Positions 13,496 to 35,306 are shown, counted from the first letter of the stretch. The stretch: 52,387 nt of DNA from Dehalococcoidia bacterium (GCA_011176635.1 DUEC01000014.1:1-52387); one strand, 5' to 3'. Numbers and translations: made by a program. Notes: generated by a model not told the origin, from the letters alone.

Positions 13496-13520
13496 AATTA
13501 TCACCTCCTTTCTGTTTTTA

Positions 13521-13582: not shown

Positions 13583-13776
13583 GTTTGCCAGGCTAGGCAA
13601 TAAACGGGTAAGGCGAGACCGCTTCAGAAGGCTTTCAACAAAACATTGTTTTGTGGCCTGGAATCACATCGGTTGCTCTTAAGCCGTGTGGCAATGTCTT
13701 GGCTAGAATAGGCTTATCTAAAGCCGTGTTGGAGAGCGATAACGACTACTGGATGCGGGCGGACGCTCCCGGCTTA

Positions 13777-13795
13777 ATGGTGGGCGGTACTGGAC
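13777..13795. repeat. 19-bp direct repeat = orphan copy of the tRNA-Val 3' end (distal att-like site)
   Basis: ATGGTGGGCGGTACTGGAC is identical to 35288-35306. The flanks do not form a tRNA: the T-loop sequence is absent. Confidence 0.7.
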
Positions 13796-13852
13796 GATAG
13801 ACAGAACTTTTGAGTCGGCTTTTAGTCTTACTATAAGCACCGTCTTTCTACC

Positions 13853-13880
13853 TTGATATCAGGCTGGAAACTAGTATAAT
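13853..13880 (+). promoter_or_regulatory. Candidate sigma70-type promoter of the first AOR gene (TTGATA-16-TATAAT)
   Basis: -35 at 13853-13858 and -10 at 13875-13880, ~40 nt upstream of ATG 13920. Confidence 0.4.
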
Positions 13881-13919
13881 GCTAGTATGCTTAAGAATAG
13901 TGAGAAAGGGACCTAAGAA

Positions 13920-15728
13920 ATGACGGCAGGGTATATGGGAAAGCTATTATTCGTTGATCTTTCCACAGGGGAGATGAAAGAGGAAACACCTGACCAGAGC
14001 CTCTATCGAGATTTCATCGGTGGCTATGGCCTTGGGGCCAGGGTTCTTTACCGCCATCAGAAGGGTGGGGTAGACCCGCTGGGAGTGGAGAATACGCTTG
14101 GCCTGGTTACCGGCCCGCTCACCGGTACTCCGGCACCCTTTGGTTGCCGATACGCCGCTGTAGCCAAATCGCCACTCACTGGCGGGTGGGGAGATGCCAA
14201 TTGCGGGGGGGATTTCGGCCCCAACCTCAGGTTTGCCGGCTATGATGGCGTGTTTTTTAGCGGTATTTCGGAAAAGCCGGTTTACCTCTTTATTGATAAT
14301 GGCAAGGCCCGGTTAAGAGAGGCGGCCCACCTCTGGGGAAAGGTTACCTTTGAAACTGATGACAGGCTGCAGGATGAACACGGCAAAGCGGCCAAAGTTG
14401 TCAGCATCGGGCCGGCTGGGGAAAAACTGTCTCTTGTCTCCTGTCTTATGAACAACAGAGTAGATGCTGCCGGGCGCTCTGGTTTAGGGGCGGTAATGGG
14501 CTCCAAAAAGCTCAAGGCGGTGGTGGTGAAGGGAGAGGGGAAGGTCCCCGTAGCCGATATCAAGGCGGCCGATGATTTAAGAAAAGAGCATATAGCCGAG
14601 ATGAAGGCTCGCCCCTTCCTTGAGGATTTCCACAGGTACGGCACCAGCAGCCACACCGCCGAGTCAGCCCACAGCGGCGATACACCGGTTAAGAACTGGG
14701 GCGGCGTTGGCGTCATTGACCTGCCCGATGTCTCGGCTCTTGAAAAGGAAGTGACCGACGCCATGGTGGAGAGCAGAACCGGCTGCTGGCGTTGTCCGGC
14801 GGCTTGCAAGGGCAGACTAAAGGAGGGAGCCGGCGAGTATAAGTACCCGGCCGGTATTCACCGACCAGAATATGAGACCCAGGCCGCCTTCGGAACCATA
14901 TGCCTCAACAATAACAGCGAGGCAATAGCCATGGCCGGCTACATCTGCGACGGCTACGGGCTGGATACTATCTCCACCGGTACTATCATCGCCTTTGCCA
15001 TGGAATGCTATGAGCATGGTCTTATTACCAAGGCGGATACCGACGGACTAGAGCTAACCTGGGGCAATCACCAGGCTATGATCGCCATGCTCGAGAAGAT
15101 TGCCCGGCGGGAGGGCTTCGGTGACGTCCTCGCCGACGGGGTAAAGGTAGCCGCCGAGAAAATCGGCAAGGGAGCCGAGGAATACGCGGTTCATATCGGG
15201 GGGCAGGAACTGGGGATGCACGACCCCAGATTTGACTTCCCGCCCTTTGCTGGTATACCGGCAGCCGCCAGGTACCAGATGGATGCTACCCCCGGCCGAC
15301 ACACCGCTGGTTTTGGGCCCAGCCAATTTCAGGGTTACGTTGTCAATGCCAGTGGGCTTTGCCTGCACAGCAATCTGGCGGTGGCTGACCCCAACAAGTA
15401 CCTGGTGGCATTCATGAGCGCCGTGACCGGCTGGGACCGCTCCCTCAATGAACTGCTCGAGTGCGGTGAGAGGATTGGCAATATGAGGCACGTCTTTAAC
15501 CTCCGCGAAGGTATCAATCCTCTGGAGCTCAAGGTACACGGCAGAATAATCGGGCGGCCTCCTCAGAAAGAAGGGCCACTGGCCGGGGTATCAGCAGATA
15601 TCAAGGCCCAGGACTACTGGAACCTCGGCGCCCTTGATTGGGACCGGCAAACAACCAAACCTAGCCAGAGAAAGCTGCTGGAATTGGGTTTAGATGATAT
15701 AGCCCGTGAGCTCTGGCCGCCTAAATAA
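13920..15728 (+). CDS. aor: Aldehyde:ferredoxin oxidoreductase (tungsten/molybdopterin AOR family), copy 1
   Basis: AFOR_N-like N-terminus (GGYGLGARVLY, SPLTGGWGDANCGG), Fe-S motif CWRCPAAC, 602 aa. Confidence 0.85.
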   Translation: MTAGYMGKLLFVDLSTGEMKEETPDQSLYRDFIGGYGLGARVLYRHQKGGVDPLGVENTLGLVTGPLTGTPAPFGCRYAAVAKSPLTGGWGDANCGGDFGPNLRFAGYDGVFFSGISEKPVYLFIDNGKARLREAAHLWGKVTFETDDRLQDEHGKAAKVVSIGPAGEKLSLVSCLMNNRVDAAGRSGLGAVMGSKKLKAVVVKGEGKVPVADIKAADDLRKEHIAEMKARPFLEDFHRYGTSSHTAESAHSGDTPVKNWGGVGVIDLPDVSALEKEVTDAMVESRTGCWRCPAACKGRLKEGAGEYKYPAGIHRPEYETQAAFGTICLNNNSEAIAMAGYICDGYGLDTISTGTIIAFAMECYEHGLITKADTDGLELTWGNHQAMIAMLEKIARREGFGDVLADGVKVAAEKIGKGAEEYAVHIGGQELGMHDPRFDFPPFAGIPAAARYQMDATPGRHTAGFGPSQFQGYVVNASGLCLHSNLAVADPNKYLVAFMSAVTGWDRSLNELLECGERIGNMRHVFNLREGINPLELKVHGRIIGRPPQKEGPLAGVSADIKAQDYWNLGALDWDRQTTKPSQRKLLELGLDDIARELWPPK

Positions 15729-15759
15729 CATTAACCAGCATAAATGGGAGCATCAGGCT

Positions 15760-16041
15760 ATGTTTAGATGCGTCGTGGAGATGTTCGGCCTACCGGCTGA
15801 GATAACCGAGCTGCGGGAGGTGGAGGTCGAGTTAGAAAACGGGGCGACCTTAAGAGATGTTGTTGCCGCCATAAGAAGAAAAATCCCGGCGCTGGAGGGA
15901 ACGGCTATCCGTATCGGGGAAGACCAGCTGGTGGAGAATTACAAATTCAATGTCAACGGGCACTTTTACTATGACGACATGGGTCTTAAAATCAAGAGCG
16001 GCGACCGCATCGCCCTGCTTGTCCCCATTACCGGCGGCTGA
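15760..16041 (+). CDS. MoaD/ThiS-family small sulfur-carrier-like protein (C-terminal GG)
   Basis: 93 aa ending ...LLVPITGG. ATG 15760 has a GGGAG SD; the upstream part of the track ORF overlaps the AOR gene. Confidence 0.6.
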   Translation: MFRCVVEMFGLPAEITELREVEVELENGATLRDVVAAIRRKIPALEGTAIRIGEDQLVENYKFNVNGHFYYDDMGLKIKSGDRIALLVPITGG

Positions 16042-16098
16042 ACTGTCTTACCTCCACTGGCTATCTGGAGGCGTCTCTTCCCCAGCCGGTGGCGCTGT

Positions 16099-17544
16099 CT
16101 AAAGAACTTTGGAAAAGCCAGATCTTACCTGAAACGGCTCGGCTATACATAGGTACTGGTCTTTAGCCGCTTCCCAGGCCGGCCACTCTACCAGGCCCTC
16201 CACATTGGGGTCTCCCGTTTTAGCAAACTGTGCCCACATCGCCATCATCGCTTCGGAGACCTTTCTATCTATATGGGTAAGGCCTGGGTCTGGTGATTTA
16301 GCCCCGGACGGGCCGGCGAGAAAATATACTATAAGCCAGTTACCAGAGGTGTTATCCCAGTCGCCGAAAACGTAGCCAAGTTCCATGGCATGGGTAGAGA
16401 CACAACCTGCCTGCTTCCATTTGCTCGGAACATGGTCGAAGATGCAGGCATATCCTCTGGCACCAGCCTTGCTCACCGCGGAGAGCATATCAACATAATC
16501 CGAAATTAAAGAGGGGAACACCAATACCCCGGGGCCGGCCAACTCCCCGAGGTTGGCACACACGATGAGGGGGGCGGTATTCTGTTTGCCTGTCTTGAAG
16601 ATGATGGTTGGCGTATCAGGCAGGAACCAGCCGTCCACCGCTGCTTCCCAAAGACCGCCTGGCCCGAACATAGCCAACTCCCTCATCATGGTGTTATCAG
16701 CTTCTATAATTTCCTCCCAGGGTAGGGAGCGAGCCGCCGCCAGCGGGTCTTTCTCCTTATCGACGCCGAGTTTGGCGAAGAATTTCTCCCCCATAGCTTC
16801 CAGCTCTTTTAGGGGTTTACCGGGCATGAACAACCCCACCGATGTCCCGCTCTCGCAGACGGCGCGGTGGAAAAGCCCCTTGGCTAAGGGTGAAGCCATT
16901 AAATTAGCAACCTTAGCCCCGCCCCCGGACTCGCCAAAGATGGTGACATTTTTGGGATCGCCGCCAAAGGCGGCGATGTTCCTCTGCACCCAGTGGAGAG
17001 AAGCCAGTATATCCAGTAACATGTAGTTACCGGAAACACCCTGGGGTGATTCTTTGGAAAGTAGGGGGTGAGCCAGAAGACCTATGCTGTTAAGCCTCAT
17101 GTTAACGTTAACTATCACGACGCCGTAGCCGGGTAGGCGGGGGACATTGGTGAGCGGGTCACTGGCACTACCCAGCTGGTAGCCACCGCCATGCAGCCAG
17201 ACCATTACCGGTAATTTGTCCGTGGTCTTTTTCGCCGGCGTCAGGATGTTCAGGTAAAGGCAGTCTTCGCTTGACGGCAAGATTTGGGGAAAAGGAGGTA
17301 AATCACCCAGCGCGGCCTGCGGGGCTATTTTTTTGAATTCGGTGCATTGGCGAGTTCCCGACCAGTGAGCAACCGGTTGCGGTGGCCACCAGCGCAACTC
17401 TCCTAGCGGCGGGGCAGCATACGGGATGCCGCGATAGATACGTACCTCTTGGCCGGGCTCACCAATCACCGCCCCGGAAACATGTCCCGCCTCTGTCTTC
17501 ACCGGCTTACTTATCAAGTGATTTATAGAAATCCTCCTTCTCAT
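16099..17544 (-). CDS. Type-B carboxylesterase/lipase family hydrolase
   Basis: VMVWLHGGGY oxyanion region and nucleophile elbow GESGGG. The start is uncertain: ATG 17544 overlaps the crotonase gene by 38 nt, and TTG 17517 or GTG 17502 are alternatives. Confidence 0.75.
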   Translation of the reverse strand: MRRRISINHLISKPVKTEAGHVSGAVIGEPGQEVRIYRGIPYAAPPLGELRWWPPQPVAHWSGTRQCTEFKKIAPQAALGDLPPFPQILPSSEDCLYLNILTPAKKTTDKLPVMVWLHGGGYQLGSASDPLTNVPRLPGYGVVIVNVNMRLNSIGLLAHPLLSKESPQGVSGNYMLLDILASLHWVQRNIAAFGGDPKNVTIFGESGGGAKVANLMASPLAKGLFHRAVCESGTSVGLFMPGKPLKELEAMGEKFFAKLGVDKEKDPLAAARSLPWEEIIEADNTMMRELAMFGPGGLWEAAVDGWFLPDTPTIIFKTGKQNTAPLIVCANLGELAGPGVLVFPSLISDYVDMLSAVSKAGARGYACIFDHVPSKWKQAGCVSTHAMELGYVFGDWDNTSGNWLIVYFLAGPSGAKSPDPGLTHIDRKVSEAMMAMWAQFAKTGDPNVEGLVEWPAWEAAKDQYLCIAEPFQVRSGFSKVL

Positions 17545-18379
17545 GAGCCGCTTTCTTCACTCCTTTGTCCCTTCTCTCCTTGAAGAAATTAAACTCGTCC
17601 GGCTCAAAGCTCAGGTTTGTTCCCATAGTATGCTGTATATAAGAATGGGTAAGCCCCTGGGTTACCCCCATAATGTCGTAGAGGAAATGCCGTGACGCCT
17701 TACCAAGAGCGATGCCATCACGGGGGAACTGGGCTAACCCCTGGGCAAGTTCATTAACCTCGGCTTCCAGTTTGTCGGCGGGGACGGCCCTGTTTATCAG
17801 CCCGATTTCACTGGCTTCCTTGCCGTCAATCATTTTACCGGTGATACAGAGCTCCAGGGCCCGGGTCAACCCGCACCTTAGAACCAGCATTGGTGATATA
17901 GTGTTGCCGGCTAGCCCCAGCCTCTCCTCAACATGACCGAGCTTACAGTCTTCAGAGGCTATAAGGAGGTCGCAATTGAGGAACAGGTCTAATGAGGCAC
18001 CGAGCAGGTAACCATGCGCCTGGGCTATGGTCAACTTGTGGCAGAGCAACAACTCCTGGGACTGTTCCCAGAAGGTGCGCCTATCGAAGTGCAAGCGCAC
18101 TCTCAGACTGGGGCGGCGCCCTTTCTCTCCGGGCTTTGGCTCCTTCCAGCCGTAAACGAAACCGACCTTACTCAAGTCGGCCCCGGCGCTAAGGGCACGG
18201 CCGGCCCCTTTAAAAATCACCACCTTGACATCATCATCCTCGTTGACCTCTTTTATCGCCTTGCTTATATCGTCGCTGAGCTCCGGGCACATGGCATTCA
18301 GTGTTTTGGGGCGGTTCAAGGTCACGCGGGCGATATAATCACTCTTCTCATAGATAATATTCTTGTATTTCATTGGCAC
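17507..18379 (-). CDS. Enoyl-CoA hydratase/isomerase (crotonase) family protein
   Basis: VVIFKGAGRALSAGADL and overall crotonase-like sequence, 290 aa. Confidence 0.8.
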   Translation of the reverse strand: MPMKYKNIIYEKSDYIARVTLNRPKTLNAMCPELSDDISKAIKEVNEDDDVKVVIFKGAGRALSAGADLSKVGFVYGWKEPKPGEKGRRPSLRVRLHFDRRTFWEQSQELLLCHKLTIAQAHGYLLGASLDLFLNCDLLIASEDCKLGHVEERLGLAGNTISPMLVLRCGLTRALELCITGKMIDGKEASEIGLINRAVPADKLEAEVNELAQGLAQFPRDGIALGKASRHFLYDIMGVTQGLTHSYIQHTMGTNLSFEPDEFNFFKERRDKGVKKAAHEKEDFYKSLDK

Positions 18380-18482
18380 CCTCCGTTGTTGCCATATTGT
18401 AATCTATTTTAGGGACTCTTACAAATTGCCTCCAGCTGAAAAATCCTCTCATACTGTGGGCATCGGGCTCGGCTGTGCTATA

Positions 18483-20225
18483 ATGATGAACATGAGTGAT
18501 GCCAGCCATAAGCGGGAGCCCGAAAGCAAGCTTTTGCCCCTCAAGGAAGCGGTGAGACGCCACCTGAAACCGGGGATGAAGCTACATCTTGCCGGTGGCA
18601 TAGGGGGACCCAGCGCCGCCATTTGTGAGATTATCCGCCAATATCATGGTACCACCCCCAATTTCACGCTCATTCAAAGCACCCTGTCGGGCCATGCCCT
18701 GAACCTCCTCCACGGCAACCTGGTGAGTAAGCTGATTTTCTCCGCCGGCGCCGACATATCGACCTCAGGACGCCCCAGCAAGATAATGCAGAAAGTCTGG
18801 GCAGAAAAGAGCCTTGAACTGGAAAACTGGTCTCTCTGCTCCCTCCAGCAGGGGCTGATGGCGGGAGCGCTGGGCGTTAGCTTCATGCCGACCCGTTCTA
18901 TCGCCCGGAGTAGTATGGCGCAGGATAACAAAGATTCTTTTAAGGAGATTGATGACCCCTTCGGGGGTGGAGCCAAGACAGGCGTAGTCAAAGCCATTAA
19001 CCCTGATATCTCCATAGTTCACGGGTGCGTTGCCGATGAACAGGGCAATACCATTTTACCCGCCCCCTATGGCGACGACCTCTGGGGGCCCCTGGCCAGC
19101 ATTAACGGGGTGCTGGTTACCGTCGAGAAGATTGTGCCCGCTGATTCTATAAAGAAATATGCCGCCCTGGTAAAGATACCCAACCATATCGTTAAGGCGG
19201 TGTCGGTAGCGCCTTTGGGGCTTCACCCCTTTTCAATGGCAGACCCGGGGATAAGCGGCTTTAACGCCTATGAGACCGATACCGAGTTTCTAGAGGACTT
19301 GCACCAGGCATCTGCCGACAGCCGGAAACTTGATGCCTGGATAAAGGAGTGGGTAATAGACTGCGCCACGCCGAAAGATTACCTTAATAAATTGGGTAGT
19401 CAAAGGGTAAAGGCCCTCAAGCAGATAACTACCAGGGGCGCTGAGCCCCCCGATTTTTCGGTAAAACCCGCTCCCGAACCGGGGGCAGAATATAGCCCCG
19501 AAGAAATGATGCTGATGGTGGCGGCCAGGGAGATAGCCAGGAGTGTGCTCAAAGCCAAGCACAGGACTATTCTTATGGGCGCCGGCTCTAGAGCTGTTGC
19601 CGTGTTACTGGCCTATTATCAGCTCAGAGCTGAAGGCTATGAACTGGAGCTTATCACCGGTAATGGGCAGATTGGCTACGAGCCCCAACCGGCCGAGCTA
19701 GCCATACCAAGCGTCGCCGGGGTATACAGCTCAAAAATGCTGACCGATACCATAAACACCCAGGGAGTGTTTGTTGGCGGCAGGAACAATAAATGCCTCA
19801 GTGTGCTCGGTGCCGGACAGATTGACCGAAACGGAAACCTTAATTCCACCACAACCGCCGAAGGCCAGTTTCTGGTTGGCTCCGGGGGAGCTAACGATGC
19901 CGCCAATGCCCGGGAAGTGCTCGTAATCCTCAACCAATCAAAAGACCGCTTCCCGGAAACCCTGCCCTACACCACCTGCCCGGGGGACAGGGTAACCACA
20001 GTGGTATCGACTATGGGCGTTTTTACCAAACCAATCGGAAAAACGGAACTGCGCCTGGCGGCATGTCTGCCCGACCCAAAACTACCAGGCCTGGAAGACA
20101 GGATAAAACGGGTGCAGGACAACTGCGGCTGGCTCCTCAAGCTGTCCGATAAGGTTGAAGAGGTAGCCAAACCCACACCAGATGAGTTAAAATTGCTGCG
20201 CTGGCTGGTGCCTTTGCCCTCATGA
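18483..20225 (+). CDS. Fused family-I CoA-transferase-like protein (GctA/AtoD-like N half + GctB/AtoA-like C half)
   Basis: LKPGMKLHLAGGIGG in the A-like half; YSPEEMMLMVAAREIA and GSGGAND in the B-like half. I moved the start to ATG 18483 because the 5' extension in the track overlaps the divergent crotonase gene. Confidence 0.7.
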   Translation: MMNMSDASHKREPESKLLPLKEAVRRHLKPGMKLHLAGGIGGPSAAICEIIRQYHGTTPNFTLIQSTLSGHALNLLHGNLVSKLIFSAGADISTSGRPSKIMQKVWAEKSLELENWSLCSLQQGLMAGALGVSFMPTRSIARSSMAQDNKDSFKEIDDPFGGGAKTGVVKAINPDISIVHGCVADEQGNTILPAPYGDDLWGPLASINGVLVTVEKIVPADSIKKYAALVKIPNHIVKAVSVAPLGLHPFSMADPGISGFNAYETDTEFLEDLHQASADSRKLDAWIKEWVIDCATPKDYLNKLGSQRVKALKQITTRGAEPPDFSVKPAPEPGAEYSPEEMMLMVAAREIARSVLKAKHRTILMGAGSRAVAVLLAYYQLRAEGYELELITGNGQIGYEPQPAELAIPSVAGVYSSKMLTDTINTQGVFVGGRNNKCLSVLGAGQIDRNGNLNSTTTAEGQFLVGSGGANDAANAREVLVILNQSKDRFPETLPYTTCPGDRVTTVVSTMGVFTKPIGKTELRLAACLPDPKLPGLEDRIKRVQDNCGWLLKLSDKVEEVAKPTPDELKLLRWLVPLPS

Positions 20226-20269
20226 GCTTACAATAGCCATCTGGTGAGCTACTAACAAAGGAGGCTTCT

Positions 20270-21490: not shown

Positions 21491-21527
21491 AGATTTAGAG
21501 CGTCCGGCCGGACTTTAGGAGAAAACG

Positions 21528-22988: not shown

Positions 22989-23012
22989 GAGTTCTTAAGA
23001 CAAGGAGAGGTA

Positions 23013-23438
23013 ATGAAAAAACAAGCCACGGTGATAACCGGAACGGTAGGGATGGATGCCCATGTCATCGGCACTAAAATCCTATCTCGCGCCCTGAAGG
23101 ATGCCGGGTTCAATGTTGTTGAACTGGGCATTCAGGTATCACCGGAGGAGTTCACTGAAGTGGCTAAAAAAACAAAAGCCGATGCCATCTTAATGACTTC
23201 ACTCTATGGTATGGCTGAGCTGGACTTAAGAGGATTCAAAGAGAAGTGTAAACAAGCCGGCCTTGAAGACTTGATTCTCTATATTGGCGGTGTCCTCGGG
23301 GTGGGCAGACAGGACTTCAAAGAAGTGGAGAAGAGATTCAAGAAGCTGGGATTTGAAAGAGTCTACCCACCCGAAGCCAATTTGGAATCAGTTATCGAAG
23401 ACCTCTGGAATGACCTGAGAGCAAAAGGGAAGACTTAA
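23013..23438 (+). CDS. Glutamate mutase sigma (S) subunit-like B12-binding protein
   Basis: 141 aa. DxHxxG motif (MDAHVIG), plus AGFNVVELG, KADAILMTSLYG, YIGG and VEKRFKKLGFERVY. Confidence 0.85.
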   Translation: MKKQATVITGTVGMDAHVIGTKILSRALKDAGFNVVELGIQVSPEEFTEVAKKTKADAILMTSLYGMAELDLRGFKEKCKQAGLEDLILYIGGVLGVGRQDFKEVEKRFKKLGFERVYPPEANLESVIEDLWNDLRAKGKT

Positions 23439-23448
23439 AAAGGAGCTT

Positions 23449-24675: not shown

Positions 24676-24696
24676 AAAGGGGTATAACATTAGGAA

Positions 24697-25920: not shown

Positions 25921-25949
25921 ATTTACTTTAAAGAAAACAGGGGGCGATT

Positions 25950-26735
25950 ATGGACTTAAAACTAACCGACAAGGTAGCCTTGATAACCGGTACCGGCAGC
26001 CAGATAGGCTTCGGTAAGGGTATAGCCCTGGCTCTAGCCAGGGAAGGGTGCCACATAATTAGCGTCGATGTAGACCTTGAAGGAGCCCAAAAAACAGCGG
26101 CTGAGGTCAGGGCTTTAGGGCGTAAGGCTATTGCCATCAAGGCAGATATAACTAAAAAGGCCCAAGTTGACAAGGCAGTTAAGGAAGCCCTGGCTGAATT
26201 TGGTAAAATAGACATACTGGTAAATAATGCCGGCCGTGCCAGCGGCGTGCGGCCCTTCGTCACCACCACCGAAGCGCAGTGGGACATAGATATAGATGTT
26301 AACCTCAAGGGCACGCTATATTTCACCCAGGCCGTTCTCCCTCACATGCTTGAGCGCAAATACGGCAAGATTGTCAATTTCTCGACACATGCCGCCCACC
26401 AGCCAACAGGTCTGGCTGGTGCCGGTCCCTACATCGCGGCTAAGGCAGGAGTGGTGATGTTCAGTAAAACGCTTGCCGGCGAGGTGGGGCCTTCGGGAAT
26501 AAATATAAACATAATCGCCCCCGGCCCAGGGGCTACCAATTTCCACCGTACCAGCGGGGCTCCTCCTCAAATGGTAGAACTCGTCGAATCAATGGCCAAG
26601 GAAGGCCTGGCTGCCACGCCCCAGGATATTGCCAATACGGTAGCTTTTCTGGTCTCGGACGTAGCCAAGAAACTCTCAGGGCAGGTTATTGAGGTCTTTG
26701 CCCCCGCCGGGAGTCCTGGTGGCGGGGCCAATTAA
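25950..26735 (+). CDS. Short-chain dehydrogenase/reductase (SDR)
   Basis: TGTGSQIGFG, NNAG, and Y..AAKAG (YxxxK). Confidence 0.85.
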   Translation: MDLKLTDKVALITGTGSQIGFGKGIALALAREGCHIISVDVDLEGAQKTAAEVRALGRKAIAIKADITKKAQVDKAVKEALAEFGKIDILVNNAGRASGVRPFVTTTEAQWDIDIDVNLKGTLYFTQAVLPHMLERKYGKIVNFSTHAAHQPTGLAGAGPYIAAKAGVVMFSKTLAGEVGPSGININIIAPGPGATNFHRTSGAPPQMVELVESMAKEGLAATPQDIANTVAFLVSDVAKKLSGQVIEVFAPAGSPGGGAN

Positions 26736-26749
26736 ATTGGAGGTTTACC

Positions 26750-27607
26750 ATGAGCTTTACTCAAGAAGTAAAGAAATTTGCCGCTGAAGAACTGGATATG
26801 GACTATACCGGCATAGCCAGCGTGGACAGGCTCTCGGGAGCCCCTGAAGGCCACCGGCCCACCGACCTCCTTCCCGGTGCCAGAGCCGTAATCGCGATGG
26901 CGGTCCGACTATCACAAGGGGCGGTACAGACAATTTTTAGGGCCTATGAGGATGGATTAAGGCATGCCCAGTGCATCTACGGGACACACGGCTATGCCCT
27001 CACCCCAAACCTCCATTTGAAGTTTGCCGCCTATAGAATGGCCAGATTTCTGGAGAAGAAAGGCCATATAACGACACCATTACCATCCGGGCCTGGCGCT
27101 GGCGGCGCTCCTTTTAGCCACCGACATGCCGCCGTAGCCGCCGGACTTGGTGAGTTCGGCTGGTTGGGCATCATCATAACACCTGATTGCGGACCGAGGC
27201 TCAGGCTGGTCAGCGTCATAACCAGGGCTGAGCTTGAGCCCGACCCCCTCTACCAGGGGCCGAGGCTATGCGACCCGACCAAGTGCGACATATGCGTAAA
27301 AATCTGCCCGACAAATGCCATAAGTGAAAAGGAGTCAAAAAGCGTGGTCATGGCTGGCCGAACCTTTGAATACGGGAAAGTGGATTTCGCCAAATGCCGT
27401 GTCGGTTCGGAGGGCCTCCTTAAAAAGAGCCTCGGTTTCAAGGATTTACCCATCCCGGAGAATCCTACCTGGGAAGATGTCGATAAGGCCCGCCAGAGCA
27501 TAGACCCCAGGCAGTTGCAGGAGGCTATCCTACCCGCCGACCGAGCCACATGGTACTGCGGCAAATGCCTGGCCTATTGCCCTGTCGGGCAAAAAATAGC
27601 CGAATAA
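26750..27607 (+). CDS. QueG/RdhA-related 2x[4Fe-4S] protein without an obvious corrinoid domain
   Basis: The N-terminus resembles epoxyqueuosine-reductase-like proteins. Cluster motifs CDICVKICPTNAI and CGKCLAYCPVG. Confidence 0.55.
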   Translation: MSFTQEVKKFAAEELDMDYTGIASVDRLSGAPEGHRPTDLLPGARAVIAMAVRLSQGAVQTIFRAYEDGLRHAQCIYGTHGYALTPNLHLKFAAYRMARFLEKKGHITTPLPSGPGAGGAPFSHRHAAVAAGLGEFGWLGIIITPDCGPRLRLVSVITRAELEPDPLYQGPRLCDPTKCDICVKICPTNAISEKESKSVVMAGRTFEYGKVDFAKCRVGSEGLLKKSLGFKDLPIPENPTWEDVDKARQSIDPRQLQEAILPADRATWYCGKCLAYCPVGQKIAE

Positions 27608-27617
27608 AGGAGGAAAA

Positions 27618-29087
27618 ATGAAGACAGGAAAGGCTGAGAACAGCAATTACGATGTCGCTATCATTGGTGGTGGGGCTTCCGGGTTGGCCGCCGCCCTGAC
27701 TGCGGCCGAAGGGGGCGCCAGAGTCGTCCTTCTGGAGAAGAGGAACCACATGGGAGGAAGCTCTAATTTCGCTGAAGGGCTGTTCGCCGTGGAGAGCGAA
27801 ATGCAGCGCCCGATGTACATGAACTACTCCCGCGCCCAGGCCTTCAGGAACGTGATGGAGTATAACCACTGGAAGGCCAACGCGCGCCTGGTTCGGGCCT
27901 TTATCGACGAATCGGCGGCCACTATCAGCTGGTTGCTGAACCGCGGGGTCGAATTTACCGAGGCGATAACCAATATACCGGACGGTTGGCGGACACTGCA
28001 TTGCCTGAAAGGGCCCTTCGGGGCGATGGGGTCGCCCATGATAAAGACCCTGACCCGCCGGGCCAGAGAAAAAGGCGTTGATATCAGGCTGGCAACGCCG
28101 GCTAAAAAGATTCTAAGAAAAGGAGACAATATCAACGGCGTCATCGCCGAAAGAGAGGGCGAACCGGAGCCAATCGAGGCCAAAACGGTTGTTATCGCCA
28201 GCGGTGGTTATGCCAACAACAAGGAGTGGATTAAGAAGTATACCGGTTATGACCTGGGGGTCAACGCCATTCCAATCCGCAACTATGATAAGGTCGGGGA
28301 CGGCATCCGCCTGGGTTGGGAAGTCGGCGCCGCCGAAGAAGGCATGGGCGTTCTGCATTTCTTCCGCGTCGGCCCCATGGGGCCGGGAGTCCGCATGCTG
28401 TGCCACGTCGAGTGCGCCTGCCTCCAGCCCTTCCTCTGGGTCAACCAGCAGGGAGAGCGTTTCTGCGATGAGTCCATCGCCTTTAACGATACCTTCGAGG
28501 GTAATGCCAGCGCCCGCTTAAAAGAGGGCTACAGCTACACCATATTCGACGATGCCACCAAGGAGCTCATGGTAGAACACGGCATTGAAAAGAGCGTCTC
28601 CAACAAGAACCTGACTGGCACCCGGCTTACCAACTTTGATAGAGACCTGAAGAAGGCCTTGGACAAAAAGAACACTGAGATAGCCGTTGCCGGCACTATA
28701 GAAGAGCTGGCCCGGAAAATAAAGGTGGAGCCTTCCGTACTCAAGGCAACCGTTGACGAGTATAACCGCTTCTGTGACACCGGCTGCGATGAGGTCTTTG
28801 CCAAGGAGCCGAAGTACCTCCTGCCGGTGAAGAAGCCGAAATTCTACGCCATGAAGGGCCATACCGTTTTCCTGGGAACCTTGGGCGGCATCAAGATTAA
28901 CCACCGCATGGAGGTAGTTGACGAGAAGGAAAAAGCTATCCCCGGCCTCTACACCGTGGGCACGGATGCCGGCGGGCTCTACGGGGACAGTTACTGCTTC
29001 CTGCCGGCTTCGGGGACGACGCTCGGCTTTGCCGTCAATTCGGGGCGGATTGCCGGTAGAAATGCCTTAAGGTACATCGGAAAGTAG
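27618..29087 (+). CDS. FAD-dependent oxidoreductase (FAD_binding_2; soluble fumarate reductase / KstD-like)
   Basis: YDVAIIGGGASGLAAALTAAEGGARVVLLEK, and C-terminal GLYTVGTDAGG. Confidence 0.8.
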   Translation: MKTGKAENSNYDVAIIGGGASGLAAALTAAEGGARVVLLEKRNHMGGSSNFAEGLFAVESEMQRPMYMNYSRAQAFRNVMEYNHWKANARLVRAFIDESAATISWLLNRGVEFTEAITNIPDGWRTLHCLKGPFGAMGSPMIKTLTRRAREKGVDIRLATPAKKILRKGDNINGVIAEREGEPEPIEAKTVVIASGGYANNKEWIKKYTGYDLGVNAIPIRNYDKVGDGIRLGWEVGAAEEGMGVLHFFRVGPMGPGVRMLCHVECACLQPFLWVNQQGERFCDESIAFNDTFEGNASARLKEGYSYTIFDDATKELMVEHGIEKSVSNKNLTGTRLTNFDRDLKKALDKKNTEIAVAGTIEELARKIKVEPSVLKATVDEYNRFCDTGCDEVFAKEPKYLLPVKKPKFYAMKGHTVFLGTLGGIKINHRMEVVDEKEKAIPGLYTVGTDAGGLYGDSYCFLPASGTTLGFAVNSGRIAGRNALRYIGK

Positions 29088-29101
29088 CTGGATAGTTCGC
29101 C

Positions 29102-30484
29102 CTATCCCAGCAGCCGGATGATTTCGGTGGCATCATCCAGTTTCTCAAGCCGCCCGATAAGCTCTATAACCATAGCCACCTCATTATCGGCCAGCGGCTT
29201 GATAGAGCCGGCGGCGCACTGGCGGAACTTGGCCGCACAATCGGCGAAGGTCATCGGCCTTTCAACACTGCCCAGGCAGTGCTCCACTTCCTCAGTGTAC
29301 TCCGTGCCGTCTGCCATGACTATCTTTACCCGTCCCGGACCGACCCCATGGCGGCTCATCGCCTTGTCCAGTACGCCGGTTACCTTGCCGGAGATTCTTA
29401 AGACATCCTCTCTTCTGATGGCTTCCTCGGTGAAGTCTTCCCCGCCGACCCTGCCTTTAACGATGGCGGTAGCTATCGCCCAGGGTAGACTGAACTGGGC
29501 ATCGACGATATTCCTGGGAATGCGCTTTACCTCCGGGGGCACCACGCATATTTCGTAGACTGACTCGCCGCCGTAGGCGGTAATGCTTTTTACCTGGTCA
29601 GCCTTGATATCGTGTTTTGACTTTAGCAGGAGCACGGCATCAATAAAGGGATGGCTAAACCCGCAGCAGGGATAGGGCTTATCGCCTATGTTGACTCCCT
29701 CAAACCTCTTGCCCAGGTCTGCGGTCAGGACTTTAGCGTCATAATCTCCTCCGTGGTACTGGTAAAACATGCCGTATTCACCCTCCAGGATGTTCCTGGC
29801 ACCGGTAATCCCCCTCTCAGCCATGAGGGCAGCGGTAATGCCTCCCTTCGCCGCCAGTCCCGGCCCCATCCTCTTGGTTAGAGCGCCGTCATTAACACAT
29901 TGAGAATTACCGGCACACTGGTGATAGGCAATGCCTATGGCGTTAACCATTCTTTCCTGGTCAAGCCCCATTATCCTTCCCGCCATAGCGGCGGCGCCCA
30001 GGTAGCCGTAAAGGGCGGTGGGGTGCCAGCCGGATTTCACCAGGTTAGACCCCGGGCGGCTGGCCAGTCCCAGCCTGGCCAGGAAATCGGCTCCCAGCGC
30101 CAGAGCCGTGATGAACTCCTGGCCGCTTATCCCTCCCATCCGCTCGGCCACGGCAAAACAGGTGGGCACGGCCACACAGCCGATGTGCACCTGGGCCACC
30201 GGGTGACCGTCATCATAGTCCAGGGCGTGTGTCATGGTAGCGTTGACCTGGGCGGCATTCGGGGCCGGGCACCTGAGCCCATAGGCGATGATGGTGCTCT
30301 GCTCATTACCTCCCCACTCCTTAGCCATAGCCACCAGCTCACCAACGCCCGCCTGTGACGAACCGCCCAGGGAAGCAGCCAGGCTATCCAGGACTTCCTT
30401 CTTAGCCGCCTCTACGGCCGGGCCGGGGATATCCTCATACCTGGTTCGGGTAAAGTTTTTCACGAAGTCAAATATCGCATCCAT
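29102..30484 (-). CDS. MmgE/PrpD-family protein (2-methylcitrate dehydratase-like)
   Basis: The N-terminus FVKNFTRTRYEDIPGPAVEAAKKEVLDSLAASLGG is typical of the family. 460 aa. Confidence 0.8.
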   Translation of the reverse strand: MDAIFDFVKNFTRTRYEDIPGPAVEAAKKEVLDSLAASLGGSSQAGVGELVAMAKEWGGNEQSTIIAYGLRCPAPNAAQVNATMTHALDYDDGHPVAQVHIGCVAVPTCFAVAERMGGISGQEFITALALGADFLARLGLASRPGSNLVKSGWHPTALYGYLGAAAMAGRIMGLDQERMVNAIGIAYHQCAGNSQCVNDGALTKRMGPGLAAKGGITAALMAERGITGARNILEGEYGMFYQYHGGDYDAKVLTADLGKRFEGVNIGDKPYPCCGFSHPFIDAVLLLKSKHDIKADQVKSITAYGGESVYEICVVPPEVKRIPRNIVDAQFSLPWAIATAIVKGRVGGEDFTEEAIRREDVLRISGKVTGVLDKAMSRHGVGPGRVKIVMADGTEYTEEVEHCLGSVERPMTFADCAAKFRQCAAGSIKPLADNEVAMVIELIGRLEKLDDATEIIRLLG

Positions 30485-30508
30485 AAAACTACCCTTGATA
30501 GAGTTACT

Positions 30509-31345
30509 TTAGGTAAGACCGCCGCTGATGCCGATGGCTTCTCCGGTGATATAGGTGGACATGTCAGAAACCAGGAAATAGGCCAGGTCGGCGACTTCGT
30601 CAGTGGTACCGAGCCGACCCAGCGGTATGAGAGCGCCCATCTTCTGGTAGTCCTTTTCCCTAGCCTCATCCCAGGTGATGCCCTCCGCCTTGCTCATTTT
30701 AGCAAAGGCTTCGTCCCTCAGGTTAGTGATGACGGCGCCGGGATTAATGGCGTTGACGTTTATCTTATGCGGCCCCAACTCCAGAGCCAGCGTTTTTACC
30801 AGGCTGATGACTCCGTACTTAGAGACACTATAAGCAACGCTCCCGGCGACGCCGTGCGTCCCCGCCATTGAGGCTATAAGCACAATCCGGCCGCCTTCGC
30901 CGCGGGCAATCATGCTTTTAGCCACCGCTTTTGAAATGAGAAAGGAGCCGGTGGTATTGACATCAAGAATATCCCGCCAGTCTTTCTCAGAAAGCTCGAC
31001 GGCCGGCTTTCCCACCGGGCCGCGAATGGCGGCGCAATGCACCAGGATATCAATCCTGCCGAATTTTCCCAGCGTTTTGTTTACCATTTCATCGACGTTT
31101 TTACTATTGCTTATATCCAGCACCAGGGCCATGGCTTGCCTGCCCAGGGCTTCTATTTCGGCGACCTCGGCCTCAAGACCACCCCACTCCTCGTCACCGG
31201 GGAAAAGGCTCTGGGGGGCTGGATACTTATCGGTAATGACCAGGTCAGCCCCTTCCCTGGCCAGGCGCAGGGCGATGGCATGCCCCATGCCTCTCTTGCT
31301 GGCAGTGCCGGTAACTATGGCCACCTTACCCTCAAGGCTACTCAT
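30509..31345 (-). CDS. Short-chain dehydrogenase/reductase (SDR)
   Basis: TGTASKRGMG and YSVSK (YxxxK). Confidence 0.85.
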   Translation of the reverse strand: MSSLEGKVAIVTGTASKRGMGHAIALRLAREGADLVITDKYPAPQSLFPGDEEWGGLEAEVAEIEALGRQAMALVLDISNSKNVDEMVNKTLGKFGRIDILVHCAAIRGPVGKPAVELSEKDWRDILDVNTTGSFLISKAVAKSMIARGEGGRIVLIASMAGTHGVAGSVAYSVSKYGVISLVKTLALELGPHKINVNAINPGAVITNLRDEAFAKMSKAEGITWDEAREKDYQKMGALIPLGRLGTTDEVADLAYFLVSDMSTYITGEAIGISGGLT

Positions 31346-31387
31346 TAATGATGTTACCTCCTTTCACCGATATGCTTAAGTCTGTTA

Positions 31388-33232
31388 TTAGCCGAGTTCT
31401 TGAGCAACATCCTCCAGCCCAAGTTCTTTTAGTTTCTTATTGCTGGGTCTGGCTGTTTTCTGGTCCCAATCCATGGCGGCCAGGTATTCCCTGACCAGGG
31501 TATCTTCGTCGACGGTAACCCCGGCCAGGGGTCCCGCTTTTAGCGGCGGCTTGCCCACTAACCGACCTGAGATCTGGTAGGGCAGGGGACTAATCCCTTC
31601 GCGAATGTTAAAGGCCTGCCGGATATTGCCGATTCTCTCCCCGGTTAATACCAGCTCGTCGGTGGTTACGTCCCAGCCGGTAACGGCCCTCATAAACTCG
31701 ATGACGGCATCAACATTAGGCAGGGCGTTGTAGACAAAGAGACAGAACCCGGAAGCCATCAAGAAGTGCTGGAAGTTGCTGCCTTTTCTATATACTTGCC
31801 CCCGGCCGCTGAATGACTGCTTGTTGAATTTGGGTAATAGTCCATCAATATGATGCTCCTCAGAGCCTTGAGTATGGCGGGCGGGGGTGGCGTTGGTGAT
31901 ATAGGTGGTGGCTAAAGCAAAACCGGCGATGGGGTTGTGGGCGGGAATCTCCTGCCCCCGAACATGTATGGCATACTGGTCGGCGCCCTTGCCGATTTTC
32001 TGGGCGGCTGACTTCACTCCGTCAGCTAATATGTCGCCGAAACCTTCTCTCCTGGCCATTTTTTCGGTCATGGCCACTATGGCTTTATGGTTTCCCCAGG
32101 TCATTTCAATGCCATCGGTGTCCTTTTTATTGATGAGCCCTTTCTCATAGCATTCCATGGCGAAGGCAATGATGGCTCCGGCAGAGATGGTATCAACCCC
32201 GTAGCGGTTACAGATATCGTTTACCTTAATTATTGATTCAACATTGTCGTTGAGACAATCGCTGCCAAACATAGCCGATGTCTCGTACTCAGGTCTATGA
32301 CAGCCTGCCTGATATTTATATTCTCCCGTCCCTTCCTTCATAATTGCTTCACAGCCGATAGGACATAGATAGCAGCTAGCCCTCTTCAACCAGTGGCCTC
32401 TCACGGCCTCGGCGCCGATGGGTTTGGCATCGGGAAAATCAACCACGGCTACCCCTCCCCAGTTTTTTACCGGCGAATCCCCGCTCTCTATGGAGGAAAC
32501 AGTAACGAAGGTCGTCCCGAACTTCTTCAGCTGGTCAAGAGGCCCCTGCAGTTCACCGAGGTACTTTTTTCTTAATTGCTTAGTTCTTTCTTCATCGGCA
32601 ACCGGCACTTTCATCTTGCCTCTTACCGCCACTGCTTTGAGCTTCTTGGCCCCCATCACGGCGCCTAAACCCGAGCGGGCCGCAGCATGACCGTGGTCGT
32701 GGATAATGCTAGCGACGCGGGATAGTTTTTCTCCCGACTGGCCGATGCAGGCCACGGCTGCATCCTTGCCCAATTCAGATTTTAGCGTGTCTTCGGTCTG
32801 GTAGGTATCCTTACCCCATAGCTGCGCGGCATCCCTGAGCTCAGGCCTGCCGTTATCAATAAAGAGGTAAACCGGCTTTTCTGATATGCCGGTGAAGAAC
32901 AGGCCGTCATAGCCGGCGAATTTCAGGTAAGCGCCGAAATAACCGCCTGAATTAGCGTCACCCCAGCACCCGGTCAACGGCGATTTCCCGACCACGGTGA
33001 ATCTTGTACCGGAAATGGCCTGGGTGCCGGTAAAGGGACCGGTCAGAATACCCAGGATATTATCCGGCCCCAGGGGTTCGACGCCAGCCTTCTGCTCACT
33101 GAAGATAGTCCTGGCGCCAATGCCATAACCGCCGATGAACTGACGTCCCAGTTTTTCATCGAGCGGCTCGTCCTTGAGCTCATTTTTGGATAAATCCACT
33201 CTAAGTATCTTGCCCATGTAACCGCAAGCCAT
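31388..33232 (-). CDS. aor: Aldehyde:ferredoxin oxidoreductase (AOR family), copy 2
   Basis: Paralog of 13920-15728 (SPLTGCWGDANSGG, CYLCPIGC). ATG 33232 lies 7 nt after GGGAGG; the track start at 33265 is unlikely. Confidence 0.85.
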   Translation of the reverse strand: MACGYMGKILRVDLSKNELKDEPLDEKLGRQFIGGYGIGARTIFSEQKAGVEPLGPDNILGILTGPFTGTQAISGTRFTVVGKSPLTGCWGDANSGGYFGAYLKFAGYDGLFFTGISEKPVYLFIDNGRPELRDAAQLWGKDTYQTEDTLKSELGKDAAVACIGQSGEKLSRVASIIHDHGHAAARSGLGAVMGAKKLKAVAVRGKMKVPVADEERTKQLRKKYLGELQGPLDQLKKFGTTFVTVSSIESGDSPVKNWGGVAVVDFPDAKPIGAEAVRGHWLKRASCYLCPIGCEAIMKEGTGEYKYQAGCHRPEYETSAMFGSDCLNDNVESIIKVNDICNRYGVDTISAGAIIAFAMECYEKGLINKKDTDGIEMTWGNHKAIVAMTEKMARREGFGDILADGVKSAAQKIGKGADQYAIHVRGQEIPAHNPIAGFALATTYITNATPARHTQGSEEHHIDGLLPKFNKQSFSGRGQVYRKGSNFQHFLMASGFCLFVYNALPNVDAVIEFMRAVTGWDVTTDELVLTGERIGNIRQAFNIREGISPLPYQISGRLVGKPPLKAGPLAGVTVDEDTLVREYLAAMDWDQKTARPSNKKLKELGLEDVAQELG

Positions 33233-33261
33233 AGCTTTTCCTCCCTGTATATTTGATGGTG

Positions 33262-34215
33262 TCAAGAGGCGAGGAGATGCCGATAACTTTCAGGGTGTTT
33301 TTCCAGGTACTCAGCCAGCGACTGCGCCAGGTGTCCGGCAAGCTTGGGTACGGTGTCGCTGACGGTGTCCAGTTCGCCGGTGGCTATCTGCAGGAAGTGG
33401 CTAACCCAGACCTCGACACCATAGTCATCCAGCCCGCTACCCGTCAACCTTATTTGCTCAGCCTCGAACTTGTCCAGGCCACTCGTCGTATGCGTAGTCC
33501 TTGCCTGGTGGGGAGTCTGCGCTTGGTAGGTTATCTTCCGGCCGGTGGCGTAAGACAACCGCTCGGCGGTCTCTACCATGGTAAGTGCCTCCGGGCCGGT
33601 GACATCGTAGGTGCACCCTTCGTGTCCACTCCCCGTCATAACGGCCACAGCTACATCGGCAAGGTCATCACGAGTCAGCCAGCAGGCGCGCCCTTCGCCG
33701 GCGGGCGCCCGTATAACTCCGCCGTCTGAGACATGTAGCGGCACATTTTCGGTATAAAGGCTCATCCGCAGAAAGGTGAATGGCATACCAAGGGCGCGTA
33801 TGTGCTCCTCGGTATGGAAGTGGTCACGGGCCAGGACGAATGTTGAGTCCGCCGCCGCGTTTAGAAACGACAGGTAAATAATATGCCGGACGCCTGCCGC
33901 CGCGGCAGCATCAACCGCCGTTACCTGCTGCGTGGTGCGGTCGTAGGTCGGGTTCGGAGCTTTCTCGGCGGCGCTACGCTGAACGGCCCCCATACGGTCC
34001 TGTGCCGAAACCAGGAACAGCGTGTCCACACCAGATAAAGCCCTGCCCATGGCCACCGCATCGCCATATGAGGAAGCCGGCACGACCTCGGCATCGGGCA
34101 GGTCCGGTGCGCGTGCCGGGTCGCGGACGATAAGCCGTTGTTTCCGTCCCAGCTCTGCCAGACGGGCGGCAACCCTGCCCCCGACTTGACCAGTAGCCCC
34201 GGTAACCGCTAACAT
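33262..34215 (-). CDS. NmrA-like / atypical SDR NAD(P)-binding protein
   Basis: VTGATGQVGGRV Rossmann motif. 317 aa. Confidence 0.7.
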   Translation of the reverse strand: MLAVTGATGQVGGRVAARLAELGRKQRLIVRDPARAPDLPDAEVVPASSYGDAVAMGRALSGVDTLFLVSAQDRMGAVQRSAAEKAPNPTYDRTTQQVTAVDAAAAAGVRHIIYLSFLNAAADSTFVLARDHFHTEEHIRALGMPFTFLRMSLYTENVPLHVSDGGVIRAPAGEGRACWLTRDDLADVAVAVMTGSGHEGCTYDVTGPEALTMVETAERLSYATGRKITYQAQTPHQARTTHTTSGLDKFEAEQIRLTGSGLDDYGVEVWVSHFLQIATGELDTVSDTVPKLAGHLAQSLAEYLEKHPESYRHLLAS

Positions 34216-34299
34216 AGTCTACACCCCTTTGCAGTGAGATAGTATAACATATAAATTGACCAAACCGATAGAGAGAAAATACCCTTTAGGAGGCAGAAG

Positions 34300-35094
34300 G
34301 TGTTACTTGAGAATAGAGTCGCCATTATTACCGGTGGTGCCATGGGAATCGGTAGAGGCATCGCCCTCAAATTCGCCGCCGAGGGTTGCTCGGTGGTTAT
34401 CGCCGATGTTGCCGCGGCCGAAGGGAAGAAAACAGCCGAGGAGGTCTCCCAAAAAGGCGGTGAGGGGATTTTCCTCCCCTGTGACGTCACCGCCAGCCGC
34501 CAGGTAAAGGATATGGTGGGCAAGGCTATCAGCAAATTTAGGAAAATTGATATCCTGGTCAATAATGCCGGAGGAGTCCCCGACCCAAAGGGCTCTCTTG
34601 ATGAGGTGAGTGAAGAGCAGTGGGATAAGTCCTTAAACCTGAATCTAAAGAGCGTCTTTTTATGCTGCCAGGCGGTTGTGCCCCACATGAAAAAGAATAA
34701 ATACGGCAAGATTATAAACGTCTCTTCTTTAGGAGCGGTCCACCCGGCCGTTTCCGTTGTCCATTATCACGCGGCTAAGGCCGGGGTCCTGGGGTTAACC
34801 TATAACCTGGCCTTTGAATTGGCCCCTTTCAATATCACGGTGAATGTTATTCTACCGGGGCCCATCCGCACCCCATTCTGGGAGCCCGTAACCAAAGACG
34901 TCCCGGATAAAGATGCCTATTTTGCCGAGATAGCCAAAAAAGAGGTACCCATGCAGAGAGTAGGTACGCCGGAGGATATCGCCGGAGCCGCCTTATTCCT
35001 GGCATCAGAGCTTTCAGCATTTGTTAGCGGTGAAACCATAAATGTTGCCGGCGGACTACCCCAGTTGCCACACGATGCTACCATTGGTGGTTAG
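34300..35094 (+). CDS. Short-chain dehydrogenase/reductase (SDR), GTG start
   Basis: ITGGAMGIGRG, NNAG, YHAAK. Confidence 0.85.
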   Translation: MLLENRVAIITGGAMGIGRGIALKFAAEGCSVVIADVAAAEGKKTAEEVSQKGGEGIFLPCDVTASRQVKDMVGKAISKFRKIDILVNNAGGVPDPKGSLDEVSEEQWDKSLNLNLKSVFLCCQAVVPHMKKNKYGKIINVSSLGAVHPAVSVVHYHAAKAGVLGLTYNLAFELAPFNITVNVILPGPIRTPFWEPVTKDVPDKDAYFAEIAKKEVPMQRVGTPEDIAGAALFLASELSAFVSGETINVAGGLPQLPHDATIGG

Positions 35095-35287
35095 GGATGC
35101 CGAGTCAGCAAATTTGGTGGGGCTTGTATCCTCTACCCTTTTTCGTAAATACGAGTTTACGGTAGGGTCTATTTAATGTTGAGAGAGGTCAAGGTAACTG
35201 GCAACGAAGCAGTCCTGAGTTACTCAATACCTCTCCTACCTGAGAAGATAGCTATTGAAAAAGAGGGAGTTCTACCTACCGTACAGT

Positions 35288-35306
35288 ATGGTGGGCGGTA
35301 CTGGAC
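35288..35306. repeat. 19-bp direct repeat, tRNA-proximal copy (att-like)
   Basis: Identical to 13777-13795. It covers CCA, the discriminator base, the 3' acceptor strand and part of the T-stem of tRNA-Val, plus 1 nt beyond. Confidence 0.7.

Follow-up and report, generated by a model that had tools for sequence, protein, structure and literature searches.

How does the 3′ end of a tRNA gene come to stand twice, on either side of a 21.5 kb run of metabolic genes? The question is raised by a stretch of 52,387 nt from a Dehalococcoidia bacterium (GCA_011176635.1 DUEC01000014.1:1-52387), the whole of which is referred to here as the window. In this window the 19-mer ATGGTGGGCGGTACTGGAC has exact copies at 13777-13795 and 35288-35306, both on the plus strand, forming a direct repeat. 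It is likely, with a probability of roughly 0.7, that the interval 13777-35306 is a decayed integrative element that entered the tRNA-Val(CAC) gene of an uncultured Dehalococcoidales bacterium at its 3′ end, through the action of a large serine recombinase (LSR).

The repeat, its tRNA, and a recombinase remnant

The bracket is defined by three features, given here with the attachment (att) sites to which they are assigned.

13777-13795, plus strand: repeat copy 1, attR core and displaced tRNA 3′ end; exact match, at the equal place in the sister lineage (L179-L182)
35288-35306, plus strand: repeat copy 2, attL core; tRNA 3′ end from mid T-loop through CCA plus 1 nt; exact match
35289-35364, minus strand: tRNA-Val(CAC), integration target and attB side of attL; ARAGORN, Rfam RF00005

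The intact tRNA-Val(CAC) is the only tRNA called in the window (ARAGORN; Rfam, 74.8 bits), and its sequence is identical in the relatives L007, L009, L094, L095, and L186. Read on the tRNA strand, the repeat is made up of two T-loop nucleotides (GT), the 3′ strand of the T-stem (CCAGT), the 3′ strand of the acceptor stem (ACCGCCC), the discriminator base (A), CCA, and one further nucleotide (T). At copy 1, neither a tRNA body nor any tRNA context was found with ARAGORN. An earlier reading of the window, made from the sequence only, had placed the 19-mer at these two positions, assigned the second copy to the 3′ end of an intact minus-strand tRNA-Val(CAC), seen no tRNA context for the first, and noted an orientation that fits insertion on the 3′ side of the tRNA; all of this holds, with the direct repeat placed accordingly.

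That the repeat is a chance match, or one copy pair of a dispersed repeat, is scarcely credible. Short length is the only property in favour of this, set against a chance expectation of 0.01 matches, two or more matches in 0 of 100 shuffles, and the absence from the window of a third copy at up to three mismatches. The repeat is also the exact 3′ end of a tRNA, with recombinase half-sites beside it. Across 2.5 Mb of related loci, its 18-mer is confined to tRNA-Val(CAC) genes, the sister lineage's attR at the equivalent position, and one other tRNA fragment; the dispersed repeat that the sequence-only reading had allowed for was not encountered.

Next to copy 2, the window retains the end of a recombinase gene.

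35176-35310, plus strand: remnant of an LSR gene, last 44 codons and TGA stop; tblastn and BLASTP to the L098 LSR, translation
35101-35175, no strand: putative junction from the deletion of about 478 LSR codons and any other backbone genes; similar neither to the gene block of relatives (which ends at 35100) nor to LSR genes (which start at about 35176-35184)

The 44 residues encoded by 35176-35307 are identical at 37/44 positions (84 %) to residues 479-522 of a 522-aa LSR in L098 (E 3e-16 by tblastn, 6e-24 by BLASTP). This protein has Resolvase, Recombinase, and Zn_ribbon_recom domains, and its gene ends inside tRNA-Val; in the window, the frame of the remnant takes in repeat copy 2 and reaches a TGA stop within the tRNA. 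Pfam found no integrase domain in the 18 open reading frames (ORFs) of the interval, in which room for a pseudogene exists only at 35101-35310, and no recombination directionality factor among the proteins of the interval. The earlier statement that no intact integrase is left is thus upheld, a 44-codon tail being all that survives. A Tn7-like or CRISPR-associated transposon reading of the TGTAC end was dropped, as this sequence is the coding tail of the LSR gene.

Half-sites of the recombinase family lie on the inner side of both copies of the repeat.

35268-35280, plus strand: attL inner half-site (P′) AGTTCTACCTACC, 7 nt from the repeat; near-identical beside tRNA-Val in L098, L123, L158, L106, and L088
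13796-13808, plus strand: attR inner half-site (P) GATAGACAGAACT, abutting the repeat, inverted partner of P′; 12/13 positions match the exact inverse of the L156 P′
13796-13902, plus strand: candidate left arm of the element, common only to the sister lineage; 100 % identical in L179-L183 from 13799, with one single-nucleotide difference at 13798 in L179
13706-13776, no strand: attR outer flank, presumed original tRNA-Val trailer (B′ side); conserved with the sister lineage

In the recombinase tail, the conserved GVLPT motif is specified by the P′ half-site, of which a related form, AGTTCTGTCTATT, is present in L156 and L189. When the right end of the interval is linked through the 19-mer to its left end, an attP of about 52 bp is recovered, in which 18/26 positions are dyad-symmetric about a centre between ATGGTG and GGCGG; none of 2000 shuffles reached this value. 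Such imperfect dyad symmetry around the centre, in a site of this length, is the anatomy expected of an LSR attP. With high confidence, the two repeats can be read as the attL (35288) and attR (13777) scars of LSR insertion into the tRNA-Val 3′ end. Strand exchange would have occurred at the dyad centre, in the 3′ acceptor strand; the element would have supplied the last bases of the tRNA, and the original 3′ end would have been displaced by 21.5 kb. As recombinase half-sites point inwards from each end, the interior is topologically part of the integrated element.

The first 11 nt or so of the attR outer flank resemble what directly follows tRNA-Val in L095 (28/30 matches with the 19-mer counted in), which is weak evidence for an original trailer. 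In the left arm, promoter-like hexamers, read by eye, are present upstream of the first aldehyde:ferredoxin oxidoreductase (AOR) gene as TTGATA (13853), 16 nt, and TATAAT (13875). A 19-mer common to 13853 and 28078 (TTGATATCAGGCTGGAAAC, 18/19) was discarded as a chance similarity, there being no extended similarity and, by the authors' estimate, about 0.6 such pairs expected all-against-all.

A classical tRNA island of the tyrosine-integrase kind, P4-like or phage-type, is very improbable here. Such elements do use the same tRNA in relatives, a Phage_integrase gene lying at the tRNA 3′ end in L009, and the attR outer flank weakly resembles the trailers of L095 and L009. However, the sole recombinase remnant in the window is an LSR tail that reads through the repeat, the inner ends bear LSR-family half-sites with dyad symmetry, and there is no Phage_integrase domain in any ORF of the interval. 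Of the integrase-mediated insertion into a tRNA 3′ end that had been proposed from the sequence, the site-specific scars therefore stand, and the enzyme was an LSR of the CcrB/DsiB type instead of the tyrosine integrase that is commonly presumed at tRNA sites and that the wording of the proposal suggests.

The tRNA-Val locus and the recombinase family in relatives

Relatives were gathered through a 550-aa protein encoded beside the tRNA, and all are Dehalococcoidales metagenome-assembled genomes. On this side of the tRNA, at least 14 relatives keep the gene order of the window, with genes for the 550-aa surface protein, for MerR and a response regulator, and for PilB/PilC of the pilus. Beyond the tRNA 3′ end, nearly every lineage has different DNA, the site being differently occupied in L007, L009, L094, L095, L098, L123, L156, L158, and others. 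In L007, tRNA-Val(CAC) is followed by an LSR-end relic of about 20 nt and then by the pho regulon. Two tyrosine-integrase genes and a prokaryotic ubiquitin-like system are found in L009 (4066-6827), with the Phage_integrase gene directly at the tRNA-Val(CAC) 3′ end, and unrelated metabolic genes lie downstream of the tRNA in L123 and L158. An IS1595 transposase is at the corresponding position in L011-L013, where no tRNA-Val was detected. The variety of downstream occupants makes this tRNA an integration hotspot for at least two recombinase families.

The LSR sequences themselves are patchily distributed. The approximately 30 nt directly downstream of the window tRNA are near-identical in L098, L123, and L158, of which the 550-aa protein is just 53-56 % identical to that of the window, yet this same tail is absent from the close relative L094 (550-aa protein 89 % identical); this is the distribution expected of a mobile element. 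LSR tails of 15-20 codons persist beside tRNA-Val in L123, L158, and L106, and a tail of 82 codons in L088. Intact homologues adjoin tRNA-Val(CAC) in L156 (65 % identical; Resolvase, Recombinase, and zinc-ribbon domains) and in L100 (29 % identical), the latter with a Gp3-like recombination directionality factor nearby. The genes next to the intact LSR genes of L098, L156, and L100 are a Zn-ribbon tyrosine-recombinase-like gene, a DnaN-like gene, or genes of the helix-turn-helix/ImmA type with the Gp3-like factor.

Other tRNAs are used by further members of the family. A search of IMG/VR with a single LSR protein gave no match, but an alignment-based search did. In one IMG/VR contig (L189; LSR 67 % identical) the gene ends inside tRNA-Val(GAC) at 7245-7321, in a second (L190; 50 % identical) inside tRNA-Ala(GGC) at 6477-6552, and in a third (L191) a homologous gene ends in another tRNA-like 3′ end at about 11575. 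All three have a AGTTCTGCC half-site within the last codons. The family thus seems to be retargetable to different tRNAs, as judged from these gene ends. The best NCBIfam match of the LSRs of relatives is CcrB, at 145-155 bits; as the cut-off is 900, they are not members of the CcrB family, and they do not reach the CcrA or CcrC cut-offs either.

Three further observations concern this locus. The FAD-binding protein gene g10 (g01-g48 are the window ORFs, numbered in order) was tried as a left-flank anchor at 80 metagenome loci, in which only an FAD/Fe-S gene pair is conserved; these are paralogous contexts, in which no empty site is definable. Logan contigs L003, L008, and L010, from three runs, all stop within or at tRNA-Val, some 121 nt ahead of the 550-aa gene. 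Such breaks fit co-occurring genomes that have a common tRNA but different downstream DNA, and are not evidence of excision. In L088 (759-782; 8850-9177), two inverted tRNA-Val 3′ fragments are about 8 kb apart, with an FAD/ferredoxin pair between them, and one of the fragments is preceded by the 82-codon LSR tail and by a sequence that resembles a degenerate tRNA-Val(GAC).

The gene block and the history of the interval

Between the scars, nearly all of the DNA belongs to one gene block.

13903-35100, no strand: catabolic block of 18 genes, g15-g32; Pfam; syntenic in L174/L185, L175-177/L184, and L179-186 at 79-98 % protein identity

Its ORFs are closely packed and occupy 13920-35094. Among their products are two AORs, three SDRs, an Fe-S protein, an FAD oxidoreductase, a carboxylesterase, and a ThiS-like protein, together with an enoyl-coenzyme A (CoA) hydratase, four CoA-transferases (one of family I and three of family III), and MutE-like and B12-binding mutase subunits. 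The remaining two genes encode a PrpD/MmgE protein and an NmrA-like protein. What lies between the two scars is a fermentative or catabolic module of genes.

The block is a discrete unit, and in two of the three close relatives it is located at sites other than tRNA-Val. The sister lineage S (L179-183, L186; first AOR 94 % identical) has the same arrangement as the window, with an identical attR, the same 44-codon tail, and a junction that is 99 % identical, the deletion end point being the same. In lineage Z (L175-177, L184; 83-95 %), the block lies without an att scar between tRNA-Arg(CCT) and g08-g10. In L184 (9902-10001), 23 nt separate the end of this tRNA from the start of the block's first AOR gene, and no direct repeat of the tRNA-Arg(CCT) 3′ end was found around the block in the sequence available. 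In lineage J (L174/L185; 79-96 %), the block is between another AOR gene and two-component-system genes; L007, from the same sample, and L174/L185 are probably one genome, judging by the sample and by divergence. The similarity to lineages Z and J spans window positions 13903-35100, with edges just inside the att sites.

Differences between lineages show the region to be mosaic. Within the block, g25 (an SDR) and g26 (an Fe-S protein; together 25950-27607) are present in the window and in lineage J and absent from lineages S and Z, an indel polymorphism. Outside it, g08-g10 (a PK_C-like protein, a ferredoxin, and an FAD protein; 84-92 % identical) border the block at its g32 end in lineage Z (L175, 4956-8950), while in the window (5947-8989) they lie 4.8 kb past the opposite end from g32 (34300-35094). 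Their order is swapped and their orientation kept, as in a circular permutation. Between the sister L179 (4109-6410) and the window (6620-8989), identity falls to 59 % for g09 and 44 % for g10, with their neighbours g08 and g11 at 97 % and 91 %, a local replacement in L179 by a paralogous FAD/ferredoxin pair. Also in L179, g07 (DUF502) is absent, and a 490-aa PD40/beta-propeller ORF (8305-9783) stands between the same conserved flanks in place of the radical-SAM and precursor genes of the window (10886-13705), a cassette swap beside attR.

For the decayed element, the simplest history would begin with the 21.2 kb block inside the element at integration, although the block may instead have taken over the interior later. 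The block would be cargo acquired from a closely related Dehalococcoidales genome, in keeping with its location elsewhere on the chromosome in relatives and with its host-like composition. One later deletion would then have taken out all of the recombinase gene except its tail, along with any backbone genes. This sequence of events, with the block inside the element, cargo from a close relative, and a single deletion of the LSR gene and backbone, is proposed with moderate confidence. The most likely source of the block, whether it was brought in or relocated, is the same clade. The sequence-only reading had the whole 21.5 kb arrive as one foreign island, which the data do not establish: at 79-98 % identity the block is present in close relatives, elsewhere on the chromosome, its divergence is core-like and its composition host-like, and no empty site was found.

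A different history would accept the att scars as real and deny that the block was the original cargo, with the interior of a small LSR element later replaced or invaded by a resident chromosomal block, through recombination or several rearrangements. This is unlikely, although a number of the observations above agree with it. The block is present in all four close lineages, with core-like divergence and host-like composition; the intact relatives of the element (L098, L156, L100) have small mobility backbones and not metabolic cargo, in the parts sampled; the region is mosaic, as seen in the presence or absence of g25-g26, the 44-59 % paralogues of g09-g10, and the radical-SAM cassette swap; and g08-g10 adjoin the other end of the block in lineage Z. 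However, replacement requires two new junctions (at about 13903 and about 35100-35175), compared with one for cargo followed by a single deletion. The left junction would be just 107 nt from attR, in a stretch that holds the promoter-like hexamers preceding the first block gene, and the other backbone genes left no trace.

Accretion, in which the interval would be a composite of at least two successive insertions at the same tRNA, with the intervening att site lost and the repeats derived from different events, is even less probable than a tyrosine-integrase island. Tandem att sites do exist in the relatives L100 (8599-8751) and L106 (457-640), as a recombinase end, a tRNA 3′ fragment, a homologous spacer of about 55 nt, and a full tRNA, and they have been described for the Dehalococcoides ssrA islands (McMurdie et al. 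2011, PMC3146451) and Prochlorococcus tRNA islands (bioRxiv 10.1101/2020.12.28.424599). In the window, however, g15-g32 correspond to one syntenic unit that occurs in relatives without any att site, no degenerate third copy of the repeat is present at up to three mismatches, and the half-sites of the two ends match as one attP.

Several results weigh against insertion of a cargo-bearing LSR element. No copy of the block with an intact recombinase was found. The exact empty junction, in which the left flank, the 19-mer, and the tRNA body are joined (13776 to 35307), had 0 matches in the metagenome and genome contig collections; a comparison of this kind had been suggested with the sequence-only reading, and in relatives the site is instead differently occupied. 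Likewise, the circular, attP junction had 0 matches in IMG/VR, and the position of strand exchange is placed by symmetry alone. Because the sister lineage is in an identical decayed state, the event is old and the order of its steps is not recoverable. The placement of g08-g10 in lineage Z hints at rearrangements beyond the simple model. The composition of the interval matches both flanks (codon-usage r 0.92; tetranucleotide r 0.86-0.92; same GC), and block proteins have a mean identity of about 90 % to lineage J, against about 87 % for right-flank core genes, by the authors' arithmetic. As the block has diverged about as much as core genes, there is no phylogenetic discordance, and horizontal arrival is indistinguishable from relocation inside the clade.

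Known systems and neighbouring DNA

The tRNA sublocations favoured by integrative elements reportedly follow rules set out by Williams in 2002. Among described systems, the closest to the element proposed here are the genomic islands at ssrA (ssrA-GIs) of Dehalococcoides, which integrate at this tmRNA gene by means of the DsiB integrase (McMurdie et al. 2011, PMC3146451). In these islands a repeat of about 20 bp starts in the T-loop and lies within the 3′ end of dsiB, CcrB proteins are the enzyme's nearest characterised kin, tandem arrays occur, and some islands lack the integration module and may be fixed or mobilisable only in trans (PMC3146451). The two systems are from the same bacterial class, and both have a gene for a serine recombinase of about 520-540 aa beside attL, with a repeat of about 20 bp that runs from the T-loop and lies inside the 3′ end of this gene. 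They also have in common tandem arrays, islands without an integration module, and CcrB as the nearest characterised relatives, DsiB being compared here by its published description. They differ in target, which is tRNA-Val(CAC) here, and in relatives also tRNA-Val(GAC) and tRNA-Ala(GGC), instead of ssrA. The six-gene Dsi integration module, made up of DsiB, DsiA, a RecF-like protein, ParB, Mom, and an RNA-polymerase-domain protein (PMC3146451), was not seen beside the intact LSR genes of L098, L156, and L100. The cargo differs as well, being CoA-transferase/AOR catabolism here and reductive dehalogenases in the ssrA-GIs.

The staphylococcal cassette SCCmec (CcrA/CcrB) is likewise an LSR cassette at the 3′ end of a conserved housekeeping gene, with short direct repeats. 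Here, by contrast, scores are far below the NCBIfam CcrB cut-off, a single recombinase is seen, and the target is a tRNA and not rlmH. Prochlorococcus tycheposons are tRNA-seeded islands derived from transient integrative elements with tyrosine recombinases (bioRxiv 10.1101/2020.12.28.424599). They resemble the present locus in the hypervariable 3′ side of a conserved tRNA, in relic partial tRNAs and fragmented integrases, and in cargo left after decay; they are unlike it in their tyrosine recombinases, where the locus here involves LSRs with a gene that overlaps the att site.

The sequence-only reading had considered the island probably immobilised. The element is indeed immobile by itself, but both att sites are intact, so a related recombinase with a directionality factor could in principle excise it in trans. 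In having intact attL and attR sites around DNA without a recombinase gene, it is like the cis-mobilisable elements (CIMEs). Unlike these, no intact cognate recombinase is known from this genome, represented by one 78.6 kb contig, and mobilisation in trans is hypothetical here.

The mechanism known from Dehalococcoides, a serine-recombinase island at the 3′ end of a small-RNA gene, would thus operate also at tRNA genes of uncultured, non-dehalogenating relatives, offering a concrete route for the strong gene-order scrambling among these streamlined genomes. Natural LSR-att pairs with tRNA targets are supplied as well, with a reconstructed attP of about 52 bp and the tRNA 3′ end as attB. The general concept of genomic islands is unchanged. 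The island itself is an ordinary, well-preserved example; the tRNA-specific LSR family with an att half-site in its own last codons is the more interesting by-product. It is possible, although doubtful, that a CcrB/DsiB-like LSR family in Dehalococcoidia carries half of its own att site in its last codons (GVLPT, encoded by AGTTCTnCCTAC) and has been retargeted to the 3′ ends of Val-CAC, Val-GAC, and Ala-GGC tRNAs, with its elements shuttling 20-kb catabolic modules among uncultured subsurface Dehalococcoidales and the block in the window still open to mobilisation in trans by another family member in the same cell.

Foreign composition is confined, in the window, to DNA just outside the bracket, at 9.1-13.8 kb (GC about 0.39-0.45 at 10-14 kb; GC at third codon positions 0.46; tetranucleotide r 0.2-0.35 to the rest). 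Within it, the low-GC cassette at 9111-13589 encodes a 717-aa radical-SAM/B12-binding/PqqD enzyme (11014-13167, minus strand), a candidate precursor of 63-66 aa (13304-13504, minus strand), and two proteins without a significant Pfam domain (9171-10885). The cassette is bracketed by a 72-nt inverted repeat (arms at 9111-9182 and 13518-13589), which contains a sigma70-like promoter (TTGACA, 17 nt, TATAnn) predicted to drive two convergent units. It looks like a horizontally acquired locus of the ribosomally synthesised and post-translationally modified peptide (RiPP) type.

Two repeat-containing genes are present on the other side of the tRNA. A 318-aa ORF (37116-38072, minus strand) consists of degenerate repeats, with 10 overlapping copies of a 93-nt unit at 37461-37916, and is extremely skewed between strands (GC skew -0.29, AT skew -0.48); its length varies from 199 to 416 aa among relatives. 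At 39269-41710, a PilB-type ATPase has an N-terminal Mrr_cat restriction-endonuclease-like domain, a fusion that is kept in several relatives, and its gene contains a tract of 21-nt (7-aa) repeats at 40088-40192.

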